Assembly (NCBI GenBank): GCA_022706085.1
Contig: JAKJDF010000007.1
Span: 10,474-74,473, forward strand
Origin: Candidatus Latescibacterota bacterium
GTDB lineage: Bacteria > Latescibacterota > MWCZ01
Reading direction: 5' to 3'
Length of the DNA: 64,000 bases
Within the stretch, counting starts at the first letter, position 1. Each line of letters opens with the position of its first letter. The notes under the pieces were generated by a model. It did no database searches and was not told the DNA's origin. It was given only the letters and a program-made list of their open reading frames with translations. Position numbers and translations under genes: made by a program. This document shows positions 29,211 to 36,142 of the stretch, piece by piece.

Positions 29211-30034
29211 ACGGGCGGCACAGAACCACACTGTGGCGGGAACATGTTGCGCTCTGGCGAGACGCCTGGCGGCGGGTGGTATCACACCGCCGGCAGGTCG
29301 TGCTGATCACTTTGTTGCTGTGGGTGCCGTGGCGGTTTGTGGTTCCTCTGGTTGATCGCCAGCTCGGTTTCGGGGCATTCGCCGGATTTCCGCTGGAATG
29401 GATTGCCGACGCACTATATGACCCGCTGTACGGGGCCACCATCCTTGCGGTGCTGGCAGAGATGTACCCGATTTCCGTTCGGAGCGCCCTCCTGAGGGGT
29501 TTCTGGCTCGTTCCCCGTCTGTGGCTGATCGAGATCAAAGTAGCGATCTGGGGGCTGGCCGTGCCCTACCTGATCCTCCATCTCGGGGCGGCGACCGTGT
29601 TGACTCTGTGGCCGAGCTACGGGGCCGCCCGCGCGCTCTTCGCGGTGACGATCGTCAGCATGGCATGGGTGCTGATTGTGGTGGTTCGGTACATGCTGGC
29701 AGCCGCGGTGATGGTTGCGGAAACGCAGGGGCACACCTGGAACGGGGAGCAGGCGCCTTCCACCGGGTGGGCGCTTTCGGCGGCGCGGCAGTTGATCCAG
29801 GGGAACGCAGGGCAAGCGGTTCTCGTGATGGCCGTGGGGCAGGGAGTTATCTCGCTCATCGTGTCGCTCCTTCCTTCGGGCGATACCGTGCCGGCGCAGG
29901 TTCTAAACGCGGCGGGCATGGTGGTTACGGCGCTCTGGTGGGCGCTTTTGTGGAGCTTTTGCCAGCTCTGTCTCAACAGGGCGCGCGGGGTGACCGCACA
30001 GGAGGCAACGCATGGACGTCAGAAAGCTCGTTGA
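29207..30034 (+). CDS. hypothetical integral membrane protein
   Basis: 275 aa, multiple hydrophobic helices (VVLITLLLWVPW, IWGLAVPYLILHLGAATVL, VTALWWALLWSF); ATGA overlap with aroK stop. Confidence 0.5.
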   Translation: MNGRHRTTLWREHVALWRDAWRRVVSHRRQVVLITLLLWVPWRFVVPLVDRQLGFGAFAGFPLEWIADALYDPLYGATILAVLAEMYPISVRSALLRGFWLVPRLWLIEIKVAIWGLAVPYLILHLGAATVLTLWPSYGAARALFAVTIVSMAWVLIVVVRYMLAAAVMVAETQGHTWNGEQAPSTGWALSAARQLIQGNAGQAVLVMAVGQGVISLIVSLLPSGDTVPAQVLNAAGMVVTALWWALLWSFCQLCLNRARGVTAQEATHGRQKAR

Positions 30035-30377
30035 TCATCTCGACCGCAGCCGCATGGTGCTGTGCCACAGTGGGACGATCTATTCGCAGGCGTTGTTCGG
30101 TGAGTTACGCCCGGATGAGGTGTGCCCGGGCGTGTTCGCCTATGCGCCGGGATGGGGCGTGCTGGACCCGGGGATGACCATGGAGGCGCACGAACATCCG
30201 GTCGCTGAGTTTTACGTGTTCGCGAGCGGAAAGGGACGGATGCGGCTGGGCGACACGTGGTTCGATGTCGAGCCGAATATGTCCGTGAATATCCCACCCG
30301 GGGTGGAACATGAGCTGGCGAATGATGCCGCGTCGCCTCTCCCACTCGTGTTTGTTTCGGTCGGCCTGAGGATCTGA
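30012..30377 (+). CDS. cupin domain protein
   Basis: 121 aa, metal-binding-like HEHPVAEFYVF...G...NIPPGVEHE two-motif cupin pattern. Confidence 0.6.
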   Translation: MDVRKLVDHLDRSRMVLCHSGTIYSQALFGELRPDEVCPGVFAYAPGWGVLDPGMTMEAHEHPVAEFYVFASGKGRMRLGDTWFDVEPNMSVNIPPGVEHELANDAASPLPLVFVSVGLRI

Positions 30378-30434
30378 CGCTCGCGCCGGCTCCTTCCGGA
30401 ATGAGTCTGCGTTCCTGATTCCGCCCTTCGTCTC

Positions 30435-30463
30435 TTGACAATTCAGCCTGCTTGGAGTATCCT
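30435..30463 (+). promoter_or_regulatory. sigma70-type promoter candidate for the DUF134 operon
   Basis: TTGACA (30435-30440), 17-bp spacer, TATCCT (30458-30463), about 40 bp upstream of the DUF134 start. Confidence 0.4.
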
Positions 30464-30465
30464 CA

Positions 30466-30485
30466 TTATGAACATATGCTCATAA
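30466..30485. promoter_or_regulatory. 20-bp palindromic operator candidate
   Basis: TTATGAACATATGCTCATAA, 18/20 positions self-complementary around CATATG, immediately downstream of the -10 element and upstream of the CAGGAG ribosome-binding site. Confidence 0.35.
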
Positions 30486-30503
30486 CTCAGGAGACCACAC
30501 TGT

Positions 30504-30932
30504 ATGCCAAGACCACGGAATCCCCGGCAGGTGCGATGTATGCCGTGCACGGATTACTTCAAACCGCGGGGCATCCCGCTGCGGGCGCTGGAAGAGGTGA
30601 CGCTGGCGGTGGAAGAACTGGAAGCGTTGCGGCTGGCTGATCTGGAAGGGATGGAGCAGATGGCGGGCGCGGAGCAGATGGAGGTATCGCGCCCCACGTT
30701 TGCACGGGTGCTCGCCTCCGCGCGGAAGAAGGTGGCGGATGCGCTGGTGAACGGGAAAGCGCTCCGGATTGAAGGCGGGGTGTTCCGGATGGCGGAGGGC
30801 GTCCCGTTCTGGGGACGGCACGGACACGGGTGGGGACGGGGCCGCGGCGGAGGATGCGGGCGGCGATTCCGGGGAGGACGTGAGTTTGGCCGGGGCGAGA
30901 CGCCCCCTGAACCGATGCCTGATTCCGAATAA
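30504..30932 (+). CDS. DUF134 (UPF0251) family predicted DNA-binding protein with Gly/Arg-rich C-terminal tail
   Basis: MPRPRNPRQVRCMPCTDYFKPRGIPLRALEEVTLAVEELEALRLADLEGMEQ...VSRPTFARVLASARKKVADALVNGKALRIEGG matches the DUF134 signature; tail GHGWGRGRGGGCGRRFRGGREFGRG. Confidence 0.8.
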   Translation: MPRPRNPRQVRCMPCTDYFKPRGIPLRALEEVTLAVEELEALRLADLEGMEQMAGAEQMEVSRPTFARVLASARKKVADALVNGKALRIEGGVFRMAEGVPFWGRHGHGWGRGRGGGCGRRFRGGREFGRGETPPEPMPDSE

Positions 30933-30945
30933 GAGGTAACAGCGA

Positions 30946-31302
30946 ATGTATACGATCAATTATGATCTTTGCACACGATGCTTTGCCTGCGTGAAAGCCT
31001 GCAAGAGACCGGGGGCACTGGAAATCCGAGAGGGAAAACCGAAGATCAATTTCGTGTTGTGCACCGAGTGCGGCCTGTGCGCGGAAGCGTGTCAGCACGG
31101 GGCGATAACGAAATGGGAGGCACGCGAGGAGGATGCCCAACCGCCGGAGGTCCCGGTTGCGAGTTCGCCGCCGCCTGTTTCCGCTCCCGCTGGGAATCCG
31201 CTTTCCCGGGGGTTTGCGCGATGCGGGGCATGGATCCGTTCGGCATGTGGGCGGCGGGGCGCACCTCGAGGTTACCGGAGGGGTGGACGCTGGAGGGTTT
31301 GA
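30946..31302 (+). CDS. 2x[4Fe-4S] ferredoxin
   Basis: Two Cx2Cx2Cx3C motifs (CTRCFACVKAC, CTECGLCAEAC) in the first 55 aa; low-complexity C-terminal extension. Confidence 0.75.
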   Translation: MYTINYDLCTRCFACVKACKRPGALEIREGKPKINFVLCTECGLCAEACQHGAITKWEAREEDAQPPEVPVASSPPPVSAPAGNPLSRGFARCGAWIRSACGRRGAPRGYRRGGRWRV

Positions 31303-31353
31303 TATCCGAGGAGTGTTCTGGTTGGAAACTATTCACAGAAAGGGAAGGACGCC

Positions 31354-31710
31354 ATGAAGATCGCGGTTCCAGTAGACACGAACGAGGGCCTCAGAAGTAT
31401 CGTTGCCGGCCATTTCGGGCATGCACCGCACTATGCGTTCGTCGATGGAAAGACGAAGCAATGCGCCGTTGTTCCAAACGCGAGTTCGCACAATGGCGGG
31501 GACAAGCTGCCCCCGGAATGGTTGTTTGATGAAGGCGTGAATGTCCTCATCTGCAACGGGCTGGGCGCGCGTGCCATCGGCCTGTGCACACAACTGGGAA
31601 TCGAGGTCTATATCACGGAGGAGCAAACAGTGGCGGAGTCCATTGGCGCGTTTGAAGCGGGAATGCTGCCCAGGGCGGGTTCCGATGATGCGTGCGCTCA
31701 CAAGCATTAG
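31354..31710 (+). CDS. NifX/NafY-like protein (dinitrogenase FeMo-cofactor biosynthesis domain family)
   Basis: MKIAVPVDTNEGLRSIVAGHFGHAPHYAFVD...VNVLICNGLGARAIGLCTQLGIEVY, typical of this domain; AAGGGAAGGA ribosome-binding site. Confidence 0.75.
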   Translation: MKIAVPVDTNEGLRSIVAGHFGHAPHYAFVDGKTKQCAVVPNASSHNGGDKLPPEWLFDEGVNVLICNGLGARAIGLCTQLGIEVYITEEQTVAESIGAFEAGMLPRAGSDDACAHKH

Positions 31711-31739
31711 ATTCCACAACACGACGAAAGGTGAGACCG

Positions 31740-32270
31740 ATGAAGATCGCAGTAAGCAGTTCCGGTCAGGAGCTCGACTCGCCGGTAGATCCGCGATTCG
31801 GACGATGCACTCATTTCGTAATCGTGGACTCCGACACTGACGACTACGACGCCATTGAAAATGCAGCAAGTGAAGCGGGAAGTGGCGCGGGAATCGCGGC
31901 GGCAAGCGCACTGGCGAAGGCGGGCGCGGAGGTTGTTTTGACGGGGAACCTCGGGCCCAATGCCGCGCGCACTCTCTCCACGCTCGGCATCAAGGCGTAC
32001 CGCGCAGAGGGCGACACGGTGGGAGAATCGGTGACCGCTTTCATTGATGGGCAACGGTTCGAAATCACGTCGCCGACTGTCACCGCGAAATCGGGCCTGA
32101 ATCCGCCTGCCGCGGTATTCCCCTCTCGTCCGTTGGGCGGCAGCACTGGCGGAGGAATGGGACGCGGTATGGGCGGCGGCGGAGGTATCGGCGGGGGTGG
32201 CGGCAGAGGCGCCGGTGGAGACCGTGGTGCTGGCGGCGGCAGAGGGGCCGGTGGCGGACGCGGAAGATGA
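31740..32270 (+). CDS. NifX/NafY-like protein with Gly/Arg-rich C-terminal tail
   Basis: MKIAVSSSGQELDSPVDPRFGRCTHFVIVD...AEVVLTGNLGPNAARTLSTLGIKAY, then tail GGGMGRGMGGGGGIGGGGGRGAGGDRGAGGGRGAGGGRGR; AAAGGTGAG ribosome-binding site. Confidence 0.7.
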   Translation: MKIAVSSSGQELDSPVDPRFGRCTHFVIVDSDTDDYDAIENAASEAGSGAGIAAASALAKAGAEVVLTGNLGPNAARTLSTLGIKAYRAEGDTVGESVTAFIDGQRFEITSPTVTAKSGLNPPAAVFPSRPLGGSTGGGMGRGMGGGGGIGGGGGRGAGGDRGAGGGRGAGGGRGR

Positions 32271-33121
32271 TAGTAAGCGTTGCAAGCGGGAAAGGCGGAA
32301 CCGGCAAGACCACGGTTGCGGTTGCGCTGGCGCAGGTAGCTCCGAACAGCGCCTACGTGGATTGCGACACCGAAGCGCCTAACGGGCACCTGTTTTTGCG
32401 CCCGAATATTTCACACCGCAAACCGGTCAATCGCAAAGTAGCCTCGATCAATGTGAACATGTGCACGTGGTGCGGTGAATGCATGGAAAAATGCGCCTAC
32501 CACGCGATCGTGATCGCACACGCGACGAAGAAGGCCGTCGTATTCGAGGACCTGTGCATGGGATGCGGCGTCTGTTCACTCGTGTGCCCGGCTCGCGCGA
32601 TTACAGAGGAAGACCGGCACGCGGGAATCGTTTCGAACGGCCACAGTGGCAGGATTCGCACGCGGGAGGGCCGAATGGCGGTTGAGGCTCCTCACGCGCA
32701 CCCTGTGCTGAATGAGACGTTGAAGGAGCTTCCCGATGCGCCTCACACGATTCTCGACGCGGAGCCGGGTGTCACGGGGCGTGTAGTAACAACGGTGAGG
32801 GCAAGCGATGTGTGTGTTCTAGTCACTGAGCCAACACCGTTCGGGCTGCACGATCTGGAGCTGGCCGTGACGATGACGCAGCATGTCGGGGTTCCGGTCG
32901 GCGTCATCATCAATCGTTCAACGATAGGCGACAACGCCGTGCGCGACTTTTGTCGGGTTCGGACCATACCCGTTCTGCTGGAGATTCCGTTTGACCGACG
33001 CATTGCAGCGGGGTACGCGGTGGGAAAGACGCTTGTTGAGATTCTGCCGGACATGAAAAGCCAATTTGCGGAGGTTCTCAGGCATATCGAGCGGATCGTC
33101 ACTGAGAGGGGGCGATCATGA
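32267..33121 (+). CDS. MinD/ParA-type P-loop ATPase with embedded 4Fe-4S ferredoxin domain
   Basis: Deviant Walker A SGKGGTGKTT; ferredoxin insert CTWCGECMEKC...CMGCGVCSLVCP; ATGA overlap with upstream gene. Confidence 0.8.
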   Translation: MIVSVASGKGGTGKTTVAVALAQVAPNSAYVDCDTEAPNGHLFLRPNISHRKPVNRKVASINVNMCTWCGECMEKCAYHAIVIAHATKKAVVFEDLCMGCGVCSLVCPARAITEEDRHAGIVSNGHSGRIRTREGRMAVEAPHAHPVLNETLKELPDAPHTILDAEPGVTGRVVTTVRASDVCVLVTEPTPFGLHDLELAVTMTQHVGVPVGVIINRSTIGDNAVRDFCRVRTIPVLLEIPFDRRIAAGYAVGKTLVEILPDMKSQFAEVLRHIERIVTERGRS

Positions 33122-34035
33122 CTCCGCAGATTACGGTGGTAAGCGGGAAAGGCGGTACCGGAAAGACAACGCTTACTGCTCTGTGGGGCAGCATGGCAGA
33201 CAGGCCGGTGCTTGTAGACGCGGATGTGGACGCGTCGAACCTTCCGCTGGCGTACCCCCACGAGACGCGGGAGCAGCATCCGTTCGTTGGACGGGATGTG
33301 GCCGTAGTGAACGAGCCGTTGTGCAAGAATTGCGGTGTGTGCGCGAGGGCGTGCAGGTTTGATGCGTTTGTGCAGGTTGAAGGCCAGTTCCGGGTGGACC
33401 CGCTTGCGTGCGAAGGATGCACGCTGTGCACGCTGGTGTGCCCGCTCGATGCGATCACCATGAAACCGCACGTCTCCGGAACGTGGTCTGTGAGCGAAAC
33501 CGGGTTCGGACCTCTCGTCCATGCTCAACTGGGAATTGCGGAGGGGAATTCCGGCAAACTGGTGACGCAGGTGCGCCGGGCGGGGGAGAAGCTGGCAGAG
33601 GAGCGGGTGGCGGCAGTGATTCTGGTTGACGGCCCTCCGGGGATCGGCTGCCAGACAACGGCGGCGATGGCGGGAGCCTCTCTGGTGGTGCTGGTAACTG
33701 AACCGTCGGCGTCAGGGCGGCACGACATGGAGCGGTTGCTTTCGGTAACGAATCGGCTGGGTGTTCCGGCGCTTGTTGTTCTCAACAAGGTTGACCTTGC
33801 ACCCGCTGAAGAGGCGTTGATTCGGAACGCGGTATCGCGCATGGGCGCGGAGTATGCGGAGTATATAGGGTCCGTCCCGTTCATTCAGGAGGTCCCCGGG
33901 CTGCTTGCTTCGGGAACCCTGCTCAGCGAGTGCCCGCGCCCGCTGAGGGAAGCGGCGGAAGGACTGTGGAAGGTAATTCTGGAACGCGCACTGGTGGCGG
34001 AGCGCGTCCAGCAGGGAGAACCTGCGCACGGATAA
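33118..34035 (+). CDS. MinD/ParA-type P-loop ATPase with embedded 4Fe-4S ferredoxin domain (paralogue)
   Basis: SGKGGTGKTT; CKNCGVCARAC...CEGCTLCTLVCP; ATGA overlap with upstream paralogue. Confidence 0.8.
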   Translation: MTPQITVVSGKGGTGKTTLTALWGSMADRPVLVDADVDASNLPLAYPHETREQHPFVGRDVAVVNEPLCKNCGVCARACRFDAFVQVEGQFRVDPLACEGCTLCTLVCPLDAITMKPHVSGTWSVSETGFGPLVHAQLGIAEGNSGKLVTQVRRAGEKLAEERVAAVILVDGPPGIGCQTTAAMAGASLVVLVTEPSASGRHDMERLLSVTNRLGVPALVVLNKVDLAPAEEALIRNAVSRMGAEYAEYIGSVPFIQEVPGLLASGTLLSECPRPLREAAEGLWKVILERALVAERVQQGEPAHG

Positions 34036-34061
34036 CGCACCGGAAAGGATGGGTAAGGAAA

Positions 34062-34247
34062 ATGCCTCTGGGTGACGGAAAGGGGCCCCCGGAAGGGACT
34101 GGCCCGATGACGGGGAGGAAGCGCCTCGCGGCAAGCTGCCCATCGAAGAAACCTGAAAAAGCAAGCGGGTGGTCTCTTCTAGGACTTATCGTTGTGGCGT
34201 TACTCGCGCTTGGGGTGTGGTTTGTCTCGCACAACACAGACGATTGA
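34062..34247 (+). CDS. small membrane-anchored protein with DUF5320-like N-terminus (61 aa), tentative
   Basis: AAGGAAA ribosome-binding site then ATG; MPLGDGKGPPEGTGPMTGRK shares the GxGPMTGR motif with the downstream DUF5320-like protein; C-terminal TM helix LLGLIVVALLALGVWFV. Confidence 0.4.
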   Translation: MPLGDGKGPPEGTGPMTGRKRLAASCPSKKPEKASGWSLLGLIVVALLALGVWFVSHNTDD

Positions 34248-34593
34248 GATTGCACCACGAGAAGGAGATCCACATGCCAGGAGTACGGGGAATGAGGCCG
34301 ATGGGAAGGCGGTGTACTGCGCTTGGTCCCGGTCGGGGCGGATACGCGGTGCGGCCGACCTCCTTTGCGGGGGGATATCGCCTCATTCGTTGCGGCCGAG
34401 GATGCCGTGGGCGGGGGTTCCGCGAGCGGTGGTCCCATCGAGCCTTTTTTGCGCCCGGATTTGCGTGGAGACAGCCCTTCGCAGCGCCTGTTGGCGCGCC
34501 GTGGAGGGTTTAGTTCATAATCGCGCCCAGGGTGATGGTCAGCATCATAAGGGCGCATGTATATCAACACACTTGCGATAAGGAGGCAGAACA

Positions 34594-34920
34594 ATGCCAG
34601 CAGGAGATGGCACTGGTCCCATGGGAATGGGACCGATGACGGGTCGGCGCGCGGGATTTTGCGCCGGATTCGGCGTTCCGGGATACATGAACCCGGGAGC
34701 GGGTTTCTGGTGCGGCGGTGGCCGCGGGCGGGGATTCCGCAATCGGTACTGGGCAACAGGAATACCCGGATGGGCGTGGTGGCAGGGCGTTCCGGGAACC
34801 GTCCCCGCGCCGATGACCGAAGAGGCCGAAGCGGAAGCACTGCGTCAGCAGGCGGCGGCTCTCCAGCGGTCGCTGGATGCGATCAACCAGAGGCTTGCGA
34901 GCCTGACCTCAGAGAAATAG
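34594..34920 (+). CDS. DUF5320-like small protein (108 aa)
   Basis: MPAGDGTGPMGMGPMTGRRAGFCAGFG..., Gly/Arg/Trp-rich middle, C-terminal coiled coil (EAEAEALRQQAAALQRSLDAINQRLASL); GGAGG ribosome-binding site. Confidence 0.55.
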   Translation: MPAGDGTGPMGMGPMTGRRAGFCAGFGVPGYMNPGAGFWCGGGRGRGFRNRYWATGIPGWAWWQGVPGTVPAPMTEEAEAEALRQQAAALQRSLDAINQRLASLTSEK

Positions 34921-35011
34921 GCTTCCGGAAAAGTCCGCCTGTGCGGAGCCGGGATGCTCCCAAGGGGCAGGACAGCGGGGGAGTCCGCAAGGACTCTCCC
35001 GCTGTGTGCGC

Positions 35012-36142
35012 TTACGCCGGCCAGTGATCCCAGAATCTTTTCCTGCCACGTTCGCTGACGTAACCGGCGAGAGCTCTTCGGGGGCATCCCTCATCGAGGA
35101 GACGCTTCACTTCTTTCGCCGCGCGAATGAACGCGTGGATTTTCGGGATGTTCTCCCCATTGCATGAATTTGCTTCCAGAATCGTGAATACTCTGGAGGC
35201 CCCGTCCGCAGCCGACTGAAAGACGAAATCCTCCACGTCCTGCGCGTCCAGCACCGTTAGATGGATTCCCCCGAGGCGCCAGCCAAAGGGTACGCGGCAC
35301 TCGTCCGCGATGATACGGGGGTTCAGGTGGTGGGAGATGGACGGGTCGTAGTAAGACAGCCCGATCTGTTCCAGGAAGGGCAGGTGAGCAGGTTTCAGGT
35401 CTTCCACGTGCGCATGAACATCACCCGTGGTGCGGCGGCGGAAGAGATCGCTCCAGAACGGGACGACGAATTCATTCCAGAGCCGTGGGGGAATCATTGC
35501 GGCGATGTCGTCGCACAGGCTTGCGCCGCTTTCGTTGAACACCGTTGCGCCGGTAACGCCGAGGCGGAACTGCTCGAACGCGAGGATACTGTCGTTGATC
35601 CGGCCCAGGAGCTCCTTTGTTTTCGCCGGTTCCTCCATCACGTCGACGAAAAAGGCATCGCCCCGCAATTCGTAGGCTGTGGTGCAGGGACCTTCCACTC
35701 CGAAGGAGAAGCCGACCGATTCGCCGGGAAACGCCCGCATCATCTGTTCGCGGAAGTCCAGATAGAACGGGGCCATCCCTCTGCTGGCGAAATCGACCGG
35801 CCGCGCGAGAGCTTCCATCGCTTCCGCCATCGAGTGCGCGAAGCAGTGCTCGACCGCGACCTCGCCTCCTTCGGGGAAAAACAATCTCGCGCCCAGGGCG
35901 CTGGCGTGGCCGTAACTTACTGGCGGCGTGGCGGGAGAGGGCAAGGAAACGTCGTGCGGGTCGAACAGCTGCCTTTGCTTTTCCCGTCCGACGCGATACG
36001 CCTCGATACAGGCTTCTGGTTTGAGAAAGAAATCGCGGAACGGTACCCCGGACAGCGCAAGGCAGGAGAGATAGCTACCTGACACGCTCCATGAGAACTC
36101 CTTCGGATTGCGCGCGGATGTGTAGTCGGGTTTGCGGTACAT
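35012..36142 (-). CDS. uroporphyrinogen decarboxylase (URO-D) family protein
   Basis: Start MYRKPDYTSARNPKEF preceded by AGGAGG; about 376 aa; third URO-D-like paralogue in the window. Confidence 0.7.
   Translation of the reverse strand: MYRKPDYTSARNPKEFSWSVSGSYLSCLALSGVPFRDFFLKPEACIEAYRVGREKQRQLFDPHDVSLPSPATPPVSYGHASALGARLFFPEGGEVAVEHCFAHSMAEAMEALARPVDFASRGMAPFYLDFREQMMRAFPGESVGFSFGVEGPCTTAYELRGDAFFVDVMEEPAKTKELLGRINDSILAFEQFRLGVTGATVFNESGASLCDDIAAMIPPRLWNEFVVPFWSDLFRRRTTGDVHAHVEDLKPAHLPFLEQIGLSYYDPSISHHLNPRIIADECRVPFGWRLGGIHLTVLDAQDVEDFVFQSAADGASRVFTILEANSCNGENIPKIHAFIRAAKEVKRLLDEGCPRRALAGYVSERGRKRFWDHWPA

Follow-up and report, generated by a model that had tools for sequence, protein, structure and literature searches.

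A conserved palindrome at the promoter of a DUF134-led iron-sulfur operon as the predicted operator of an autorepressor

The window analyzed here, by which we mean the whole 64-kb stretch of DNA from a Candidatus Latescibacterota bacterium, contains an operon that begins with a gene of the DUF134 (UPF0251) family and continues with genes for a ferredoxin-domain protein, two NifX-like proteins, two P-loop ATPases and DUF5320-type proteins. Between the predicted promoter and the ribosome-binding site of the DUF134 gene lies a 20-bp palindrome, TTATGAACATATGCTCATAA (30466-30485). Its two 10-nt arms (30466-30475 and 30476-30485) adjoin without a gap and pair at all positions but one (9 of 10), the mismatch being A7/C14; the arm cores read TGAACA on the left and, on the other strand, TGAGCA on the right. 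The promoter, TTGACA-17-TATCCT, is the only sigma70-like match (10 of 12 positions) in 29800-35300, and downstream of the palindrome, 4 nt separate it from the GGAG of the ribosome-binding site and 18 nt from the ATG (30504) that starts DUF134. An initial annotation had described a palindrome self-complementary at 18 of 20 positions, placed between this promoter and the ribosome-binding site, and the coordinates together with the promoter scan bear out both statements. We propose that the DUF134 protein, whose gene starts 18 nt downstream, would use the palindrome as its operator and so autorepress an Fe-S operon resembling those of the ORP (orange protein) complex; on the strength of the sequence comparisons described below, we hold this to be quite likely.

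The site is conserved among close relatives. Operon architecture is shared by four orthologous loci of the window clade (97, 83, 74 and 62% protein identity), which keep 17-20 of the 20 site positions. The entire upstream region of the 97% ortholog is identical to that of the window. The 83% ortholog carries TATCCTCATTATGAACATATGCTCATAACT unchanged in a region where the promoter spacer and leader have diverged, and the 74 and 62% orthologs, which have unrelated upstream genes, carry TTTTGAACGTATGTTCATAA and TTGTGAACGTATGTTCATAA, respectively, each matching at 17 of 20 positions. Identity in the ortholog flanks is about 0.5-0.64, near the value of unrelated DNA under the same alignment scoring.

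Conservation extends across the family. We surveyed 80 DUF134 loci from GTDB species representatives, which were fetched using an alignment of 31 homologs, for a 20-mer located no more than 200 nt upstream of the start codon, in which 8 or more pairs are palindromic and 10 or more of the 14 core letters (TTATnnnCATATGnnnATAA) are matched. The nearest of these GTDB representatives are only 62-68% identical. Such a 20-mer is present at 54 of the 80 loci, mostly ending 9-35 nt before the start. The remaining 356,259 positions of the surveyed loci contain seven more, and five of these lie in promoter context farther upstream, in operons where DUF134 comes later and the first gene encodes an Fe-S ATPase, DUF5320, or an ARMT1-like protein followed by DUF5320. 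The bacterial carriers belong to Chloroflexota, Desulfobacterota, Planctomycetota, Chlamydiota, Zixibacteria, Ignavibacteria, Actinomycetota, Omnitrophota, Margulisbacteria, Elusimicrobia and Patescibacteria. Archaeal carriers are metagenome-assembled genomes (MAGs) of Bathyarchaeia, Micrarchaeota and Nanoarchaeota; the taxonomy of these loci is that of the MAG record titles, and their TATA-type promoters fit it. Information content inside the 20-mer is 0.84-2.0 bits, exceeding 1.1 bits at 19 of 20 positions, and is at most 0.75 bits directly outside; this drop at the edges indicates that the coordinates first given for the palindrome delimit the functional unit. Four operator bases (T1, T4, T10 and A11) are invariant. 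With a position weight matrix (PWM) built from the 54 other DUF134 loci, the window site scores 38 bits and the next-best match in the window 3.8 bits, and neither the PWM scan nor a loose search for TGAAC-N4-GTTCA found a second operator in the 64 kb.

Directly 5′ of the palindrome, an additional element (CCTCAT, GTTCAT or GCTCAT) is kept in the four window-clade orthologs despite differing promoter register, and a weak half-site PWM match occurs at 30449-30468 in the window. This GyTCAT element was not seen in lineages outside the window clade. It tentatively resembles a third half-site, and is possibly comparable with the palindrome plus direct repeat of DeoR.

The association also holds when the motif is the starting point. 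Metagenome contigs were scanned with TTATGARCATATGYTCATAA alone, which returned at least 80 loci, and downstream genes were assigned after correction for artefacts of open reading frame (ORF) calling (in frame, the palindrome reads YEHMLII) and for contig-end truncations. Among the matches listed, DUF134 is the gene directly downstream in 62 of 80. DUF5320 followed by DUF134 accounts for one locus, a DUF5320 or NifX-like gene in first place with no DUF134 seen for four, and a promoter context before other or unknown genes for five; at the other eight, the motif is not at a promoter or its setting is unresolved. Prediction thus works about equally well in both directions, from motif to DUF134 gene and from gene to motif.

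A separate observation from the same scan concerns a CRISPR array. At L142:982-1014, the exact window variant lies within one 32-nt spacer of an array with a 29-nt repeat (GTGTTCCCCACAGGCGTGGGGATGAACCG), a 61-nt period and at least 36 repeat copies. The operator inside this spacer implies that some targeted mobile element or phage carries it.

The operator and the DUF134 protein vary together. For 67 proteins aligned with their own operators (arm numbered T1 T2 A3 T4 G5 A6 G7 C8 A9 T10), three positions of the recognition helix covary with three bases of the half-site. Residue 68 follows position 5, Arg68 being accompanied by G5 in 110 of 122 half-sites and Asn68 by T5 in 12 of 12. Residue 63 follows position 8, with Arg63 beside C8 (124/124) and Gln63 beside T8 (10/10). 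Residue 67 follows position 7: His67 occurs with A7 in 24 of 26 half-sites, and Gln67 or Gly67 with G7 in 88 of 90. In Chloroflexota taken alone, the counts for His67/A7 are 8/0/0/23 (Fisher p = 1e-7). Chemically, these changes make sense: Arg is found beside G, and Asn or Gln beside an A:T pair.

The covariation was replicated in the motif-seeded metagenome loci, which are independent of the first set and whose proteins were aligned by hmmalign. Among the matches listed, Arg63 and Arg68 are present in all 60 scorable proteins beside G5/C8 sites; Gln67 or Gly67 goes with G7 in both arms at 34 of 37 loci, and Ser67 or Thr67 with A7 in both arms at 16 of 19 (residue-67 Fisher p = 5e-11). Where the protein has Ala67, one arm carries A and the other G, as in the window. 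Mixed arms are thus typical of the Ala67 subgroup, and the apparent mismatches of the window palindrome are a property of that subgroup rather than decay. The one locus that departs from the pattern with Gln67 and A7 (L134) has a further operator, of the GGG type, beside it.

Some genomes appear to hold more than one operator specificity. At L134:10440-10489, tandem operators of different specificity (TTATGGGCATATGCCCATTA and TTATGAACATATGTTCATAA, 6 nt apart) stand upstream of a DUF5320-DUF134(Gln67) pair, an arrangement that may reflect cross-regulation between two DUF134 paralogs. Single MAGs, too, can hold pairs of paralogs whose operators differ (L043/L054 and L013/L045).

The PF02001 match spans residues 3-95 of the window protein and exceeds the gathering score; the family (COG1342) yields 3,728 homologs at E<=1e-3, many of which have precomputed Pfam cross-matches to Sigma70_r4_2. 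DUF134 proteins are about 100-170 amino acids (aa) long and consist of an N-terminal MPRPxxxRxV...YFKPxG arm, a helix-turn-helix (HTH), short beta strands and a variable tail rich in Gly/Arg or Cys. In the window protein, the recognition helix begins at R63 (S62-R63-P-T-F-A67-R68) and the C-terminal tail is Gly/Arg-rich. Its AlphaFold model is confident over residues 10-100 (predicted local distance difference test score, pLDDT, above 90 for 30-90), with helices at 36-47, 52-58 and 63-83 and disorder at 105-132.

Sequence and fold searches of the PDB found no solved DUF134 structure, and returned only the DNA-binding domain (DBD) of DeoR and sigma region 4. The best sequence match is the B. 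subtilis DeoR DBD (E 5.7e-6), in which ISRPTVSRLL lines up with VSRPTFARVL in the window protein. The best fold match of the model is DNA-bound DeoR-DBD (0.7 A, 41% identity), with sigma70 region 4 domains next; the match to PDB 8hno, an "archaeal transcription factor", is confined to the HTH. The left operator of DeoR is ATTGAACAAAATTTCAAT, i.e., TGAAC-N4-TTTCA, and the base contacts are R39 to G4 (and T14) and R34 to T12 (PMC11229326). R34 and R39 are the sole arginines of the DeoR helix and lie five residues apart, and they therefore align with Arg63 and Arg68 of DUF134. By our own mapping of residues and bases, which draws on a full-length DeoR structure at 3.7 A resolution, the contacted base pairs would be equivalent to operator C8 (R63) and G5 (R68). 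Because covariation and DeoR homology are two independent lines that agree on the residue-base readout, DUF134 itself is the predicted binder.

Several observations weigh against an operator for this protein, or limit what the data say about it. First, 20-bp palindromes that pair at 9 or more of 10 positions are not statistically unusual in the window, where five are seen against a mean of 3.4 expected from Markov simulations, so that the case for function rests on conservation; the site is the only AT-rich one of the five (G+C 5/20, in a window of 62% G+C). Second, selection on 14 fixed core positions inflates the information content at those positions. Third, 26 of the 80 surveyed DUF134 loci have no proximal site. 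Most of these site-less genes are operon-internal, with a gap of at most 38 nt to the upstream gene. A Firmicutes group with Phe67 (SRPTFFRI; L020, L041, L042, L044, L057 and L071) has intergenic upstream regions with no canonical palindrome, L057 having a degenerate TTATGAACAAGTGACCATAA; the operator of these proteins, if any, would seem to differ. Fourth, the independent switches on a noisy neighbor-joining tree are few (about one for Asn68, two for Gln63 and four for His67). Finally, no conserved sensor residues were found in the 31-homolog alignment, in which the N-terminal cysteines vary.

The position of the site relative to the promoter bears on how the protein might act. Bacterial geometry was scored where a promoter of at least 9 of 12 matches was found, and TTGACA-like -35 boxes occupy the equivalent place at most bacterial DUF134 loci. 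At 29 loci, including that of the window, the site begins 2-3 nt past the -10 hexamer and covers the start-site region. At 12 loci of Desulfobacterota and Chlamydiota, a spacer of 16-17 nt is filled by the site, whose right arm, (C/T)ATAAT, serves as the -10 hexamer. At archaeal loci, it lies 2-3 nt after a TATA-like box (TTTAAG or TTTATATA) and abuts the start codon. Since the operator overlaps the core promoter in all three geometries, a bound dimer would exclude polymerase, and negative autoregulation is what we infer as the best account.

A mechanism can be outlined from these elements. A DUF134 dimer would set its sigma70-region-4/DeoR-like HTH into two successive major grooves of TTATGArCAT-ATGyTCATAA, with Arg68 predicted to read G5, Arg63 the G paired with C8, and residue 67 (Ala in the window protein) determining which base is preferred at position 7. 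On a near-consensus sigma70 promoter, the site occupies about -5 to +15, where the bound dimer would block RNA polymerase. DUF134 would in this way repress its own operon, comprising the ferredoxin, the two NifX/Orp8-like proteins, the two Orp3/4-like Fe-S ATPases and the DUF5320 proteins, and the signal for release may relate to Fe-S or redox status. The site is two-fold symmetric and sits on the protein's own core promoter; it is conserved where the flanks have diverged, and bases and helix residues change together, as is characteristic of autorepressors. The initial annotation had named DUF134, as a small HTH protein and the first gene of the operon, as the candidate autoregulator, and had viewed the position of the palindrome as typical of a repressor operator. 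The PF02001 match, the model and the gene order agree with the first description; the covariation and the homology to the DeoR arginines support the choice of regulator, as a predicted binder; and the invariable overlap with the core promoter favors repression, which is here deduced from sequence. The same annotation had proposed looking for the palindrome upstream of orthologous operons, and this comparison was strongly positive both for the four orthologs and in the survey.

As an alternative, DUF134 might bind the site without simply repressing, for example as an activator, as a promoter-recognition adaptor resembling sigma region 4, or in a ligand-dependent dual role. The fold does resemble sigma70 region 4, and at 12 loci the site is in the -35/-10 spacer, where MerR-type activators sit. 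MerR promoters, however, have spacers of 19-20 nt, whereas spacers of 16-17 nt between near-consensus hexamers mean that a MerR-like distortion is not needed. In addition, most sites cover the start-site region and the archaeal sites lie just downstream of the TATA box, both of which are polymerase-blocking positions, and neither Pfam nor the model reveals a sigma region 2 in the DUF134 protein. We consider a non-repressing role improbable. A MerR-type activator site as such was rejected, because the spacers are 16-18 nt and not over-long, and because the window has a 17-nt spacer with the site downstream of the -10 hexamer.

A second alternative is that the palindrome is the operator of another regulator, such as a LexA-type SOS box (GAAC-N4-GTTC, the "Cheo box") or an ArsR/SmtB-type 12-2-12 site, and that DUF134 is merely one of the regulated genes. 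LexA of Gram-positive bacteria and Chloroflexi uses GAAC-N4-GTTC motifs, and the core TGAAC-N4-GCTCA is one mismatch from this sequence. The motif nevertheless follows DUF134 into phyla whose LexA boxes differ and into archaea, which to our knowledge lack LexA. It covaries with residues of the DUF134 helix; among the matches listed in the motif-only search, 62 of 80 adjoin DUF134, and no recognized SOS gene is next to the motif in the flanks inspected; and there is a single site in the 64-kb window. Both the LexA box and the ArsR/SmtB operator were dropped for these reasons (occurrence in archaea, the tie to DUF134 and the covariation with its helix), and control by another protein appears highly improbable.

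It is likewise highly improbable, and slightly more so than control by another protein, that the palindrome acts as a nucleic-acid hairpin (a structure of the 5′ untranslated region, a terminator or the end of a mobile element) rather than as a protein site on duplex DNA. Any palindrome can fold, and in five metagenome loci (L095:1285, L097:1956, L118:7216, L114:3036 and L120:2577) the 20-mer forms the tip of a longer, fully paired hairpin whose outer arms vary yet stay complementary, e.g., GGTCAGT-20mer-ACTGACG and CCGTCCGCTA-20mer-TAGCGGAC; no DUF134 gene is nearby on those metagenome contigs. Against folding in the operon considered here, the predicted promoter would start transcription inside the left arm, so that the RNA could not hold both arms, and in Desulfobacterota and Chlamydiota the site lies between the -35 and -10 hexamers and is not transcribed. 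What is conserved is base identity rather than pairing, as illustrated by the invariant bases noted above, and Rfam has no match at E<=1 in 30300-30700. A chance palindrome without function, which the count of five equal-quality palindromes would allow, is refuted by conservation in the orthologs, in the survey and in the reverse search, and by the uniqueness of the PWM match, and its probability is negligible.

The predicted target of this repressor, for which the features are collected in Table 1, consists largely of genes with Fe-S or ORP-like domains.

Table 1. Promoter elements and genes of the DUF134 operon in the window
Feature	Position	Strand	Basis or remark
-35 hexamer TTGACA	30435..30440	+	sigma70-like promoter match
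-10 hexamer TATCCT, 17-nt spacer	30458..30463	+	operator begins 2 nt past it
CCTCAT, possible third half-site (GyTCAT), right-arm orientation (tentative)	30461..30466	+	overlaps -10
Predicted operator, 20-bp palindrome, arms TTATGAACAT and ATGCTCATAA	30466..30485	.	conserved in orthologs and across phyla; PWM 38 bits
Ribosome-binding site GGAG	30490..30493	+	10 nt before ATG
DUF134/UPF0251 gene, 142 aa, predicted HTH repressor	30504..30932	+	Pfam PF02001, 81 bits (cut-off 27)
2x[4Fe-4S] ferredoxin-domain protein	30946..31302	+	Pfam Fer4 families; same position in orthologs
NifX/Orp8-like (Nitro_FeMo-Co, "Di-Nase") domain protein 1	31354..31710	+	Pfam PF02579, 61.7 bits
NifX/Orp8-like domain protein 2, long cationic Gly/Arg tail, IssA/IssX-like character	31740..32270	+	PF02579, 81 bits
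P-loop (MinD/CbiA-type) ATPase, two [4Fe-4S] motifs, Orp3/Orp4-like	32267..33121	+	Pfam CbiA and Fer4 families
Second P-loop ATPase, two [4Fe-4S] motifs, 4-nt overlap with preceding gene	33118..34035	+	Pfam
Small ORF, 61 aa, DUF5320-type N-terminal motif MPLGDGKGPPEGTGPMTGR, predicted membrane helix (tentative)	34062..34247	+	Pfam DUF5320 E 1.3e-3, below cut-off
DUF5320 protein	34594..34920	+	Pfam PF17253, 101 bits

In domain architecture, the operon matches Orp3/Orp4 plus Orp8 of ORP clusters, and its genes may be orthologs of the orp genes; P-loop proteins with two [4Fe-4S] motifs are the known architecture of Orp3/Orp4 (PMC6345978). Counterparts of MrpORP (Orp9) and Orp5 were not identified in the window operon by Pfam or NCBIfam matches, and the match of NifX-like protein 1 to the Di-Nase part of MrpORP (NCBIfam, E 1.2e-12) is below the model cut-off. 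The start of NifX-like protein 2 follows the ortholog gene call (176 aa). DUF5320 is the usual partner of DUF134: operator-DUF5320 arrangements occur at L028, L084, L125, L134, L143 and L153, and elsewhere DUF5320 is often the first gene after the operator. In the window, the 346 nt between the small ORF and the DUF5320 gene (34248-34593) contain no recognizable gene, the ORF at 34274-34513 having no Pfam match, and two terminator-like hairpins lie in this stretch; the gap and the hairpins make co-transcription of the DUF5320 gene uncertain.

Three proteins of the operon end in or contain cationic, Gly/Arg-rich low-complexity tails (with Trp, Phe and His), encoded at 30804-30932 (DUF134), 32130-32270 (NifX-like 2) and 34700-34780 (DUF5320). 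These share the chemical character of the tail of IssA/IssX, which has been proposed to bind thioferrate (PMC5524996).

Further loci from the motif search may point to a wider regulon. A palindrome at L106:2308-2327 is in promoter context before a HlyD/CusB-type RND efflux adaptor, and at L150:1992-3358 DUF134 is followed by an ArsP-type permease in place of Fe-S genes; adaptor and permease are possible extra regulon members. At L168:1364-1383 (contig Ga0316578_10031242), a perfect DUF134-type palindrome immediately follows TTGACA-17-TATATT and precedes, by about 100 nt, a gene for a PAS-sigma54 activator. The PAS domain of this activator has Cys57-x8-Cys66-x3-Cys70, which is the spacing of C52/C61/C65, the Fe-S-ligating residues of the redox-sensing regulator OrpR. 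A response-regulator receiver ORF (831-1238) lies on the same strand, with a NifU_N (IscU-like) gene farther upstream on the opposite strand, and there is no DUF134 within the 3-kb contig. The arrangement suggests that DUF134 may control an OrpR-like regulator in trans.

In openly accessible literature, we found no functional description of DUF134, UPF0251, COG1342, PF02001, DUF5320 or the motif, incidental mentions being table entries, and the curated NCBI model still names the DUF134 family "hypothetical protein". Thousands of proteins from anaerobic bacteria and archaea belong to this family, which has been labeled "unknown function" for 25 years. It would thus acquire a target operon, a 20-bp operator and a recognition code of three positions, in which residues 63, 67 and 68 correspond to bases 8, 7 and 5; all of these are directly testable. 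The proposed mechanism, a classical autorepressor with its operator, is unsurprising; the unusual aspect is that one regulator-operator pair would be retained with little change under both the bacterial and the archaeal transcription machinery. The predicted swaps (R68N to T5, R63Q to T8 and A67Q to G7) would also give orthogonal repressor/operator pairs for engineering anaerobes. A more speculative picture, to which we attach a small chance of being correct, is that DUF134 is an ancient repressor of Bacteria and Archaea that uses one operator under sigma70 and TATA/TFB promoters, and maybe the ancestral regulator of ORP modules; its tail or a partner could sense anionic Fe-S species and so couple the operon to Fe-S supply, and in some Desulfobacterota the system might feed into an OrpR-like sigma54 activator, as at L168.

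Finally, we compare the predicted regulator and its site with known systems. The same three-helix HTH fold is present in sigma70 region 4 and in the -35-binding domains of extracytoplasmic function (ECF) sigma factors, but DUF134 has no region 2 or core-binding determinants, and its two-fold symmetric site implies a dimer. The LexA/Cheo box (CGAACN4GTTCG) is similarly a GAAC-N4-GTTC-like inverted repeat that overlaps a promoter; the DUF134 site differs in its conserved flanking TTAT/ATAA and central CATATG, in its occurrence in archaea, and in accompanying DUF134 rather than SOS genes.

The similarity is closer to DeoR of B. subtilis, a SorC-family repressor that acts at the dra-nupC-pdp operator. 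The HTH domains are alike and the half-site core TGAAC is common to both; the inverted cores are 4 nt apart in each case (TGAAC-AAAA-TTTCA for DeoR and TGAAC-ATAT-GCTCA for the window). DeoR is a repressor that overlaps a promoter, as predicted for DUF134, and its palindrome with an extra direct-repeat half-site recalls the GyTCAT element of the window clade (PMC11229326). The two systems differ in that DeoR is a protein of 313 aa with a sugar-phosphate effector domain, binds a 39-bp operator as a tetramer and regulates different genes. The window protein has the DeoR-type HTH and lacks the C-terminal effector domain of about 250 aa that marks the SorC/DeoR family, PF02001 being the only domain detected in its 142 aa. 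It is not a SorC member, yet its HTH probably works like that of DeoR.

With respect to the genes controlled, the counterpart is OrpR (DVU2106), the redox-sensing regulator that activates the orp operons of Desulfovibrio vulgaris together with sigma54 and IHF (PMC8359166). OrpR is stated to be restricted to delta-Proteobacteria, and the ORP system is considered to be maybe of archaeal origin (PMC8359166). As DUF134 would be for its Orp-like genes, OrpR is a dedicated local regulator, in its case of a cluster with Orp3/Orp4-type Fe-S ATPases and Orp8-type NifX-domain proteins, and it autoregulates through a site that overlaps its own sigma70 promoter (PMC8359166, PMC3897727, PMC6345978). Unlike DUF134, it is a PAS-AAA+ enhancer-binding activator of sigma54 promoters that senses redox through a [4Fe-4S] cluster, whereas the window has a sigma70-type promoter (TATA-type in archaea), a small HTH protein and an operator on the core promoter. 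We suggest that DUF134 and its operator are a candidate for a widespread, and perhaps older, means of controlling ORP-like modules outside the delta-Proteobacteria, where OrpR is absent.

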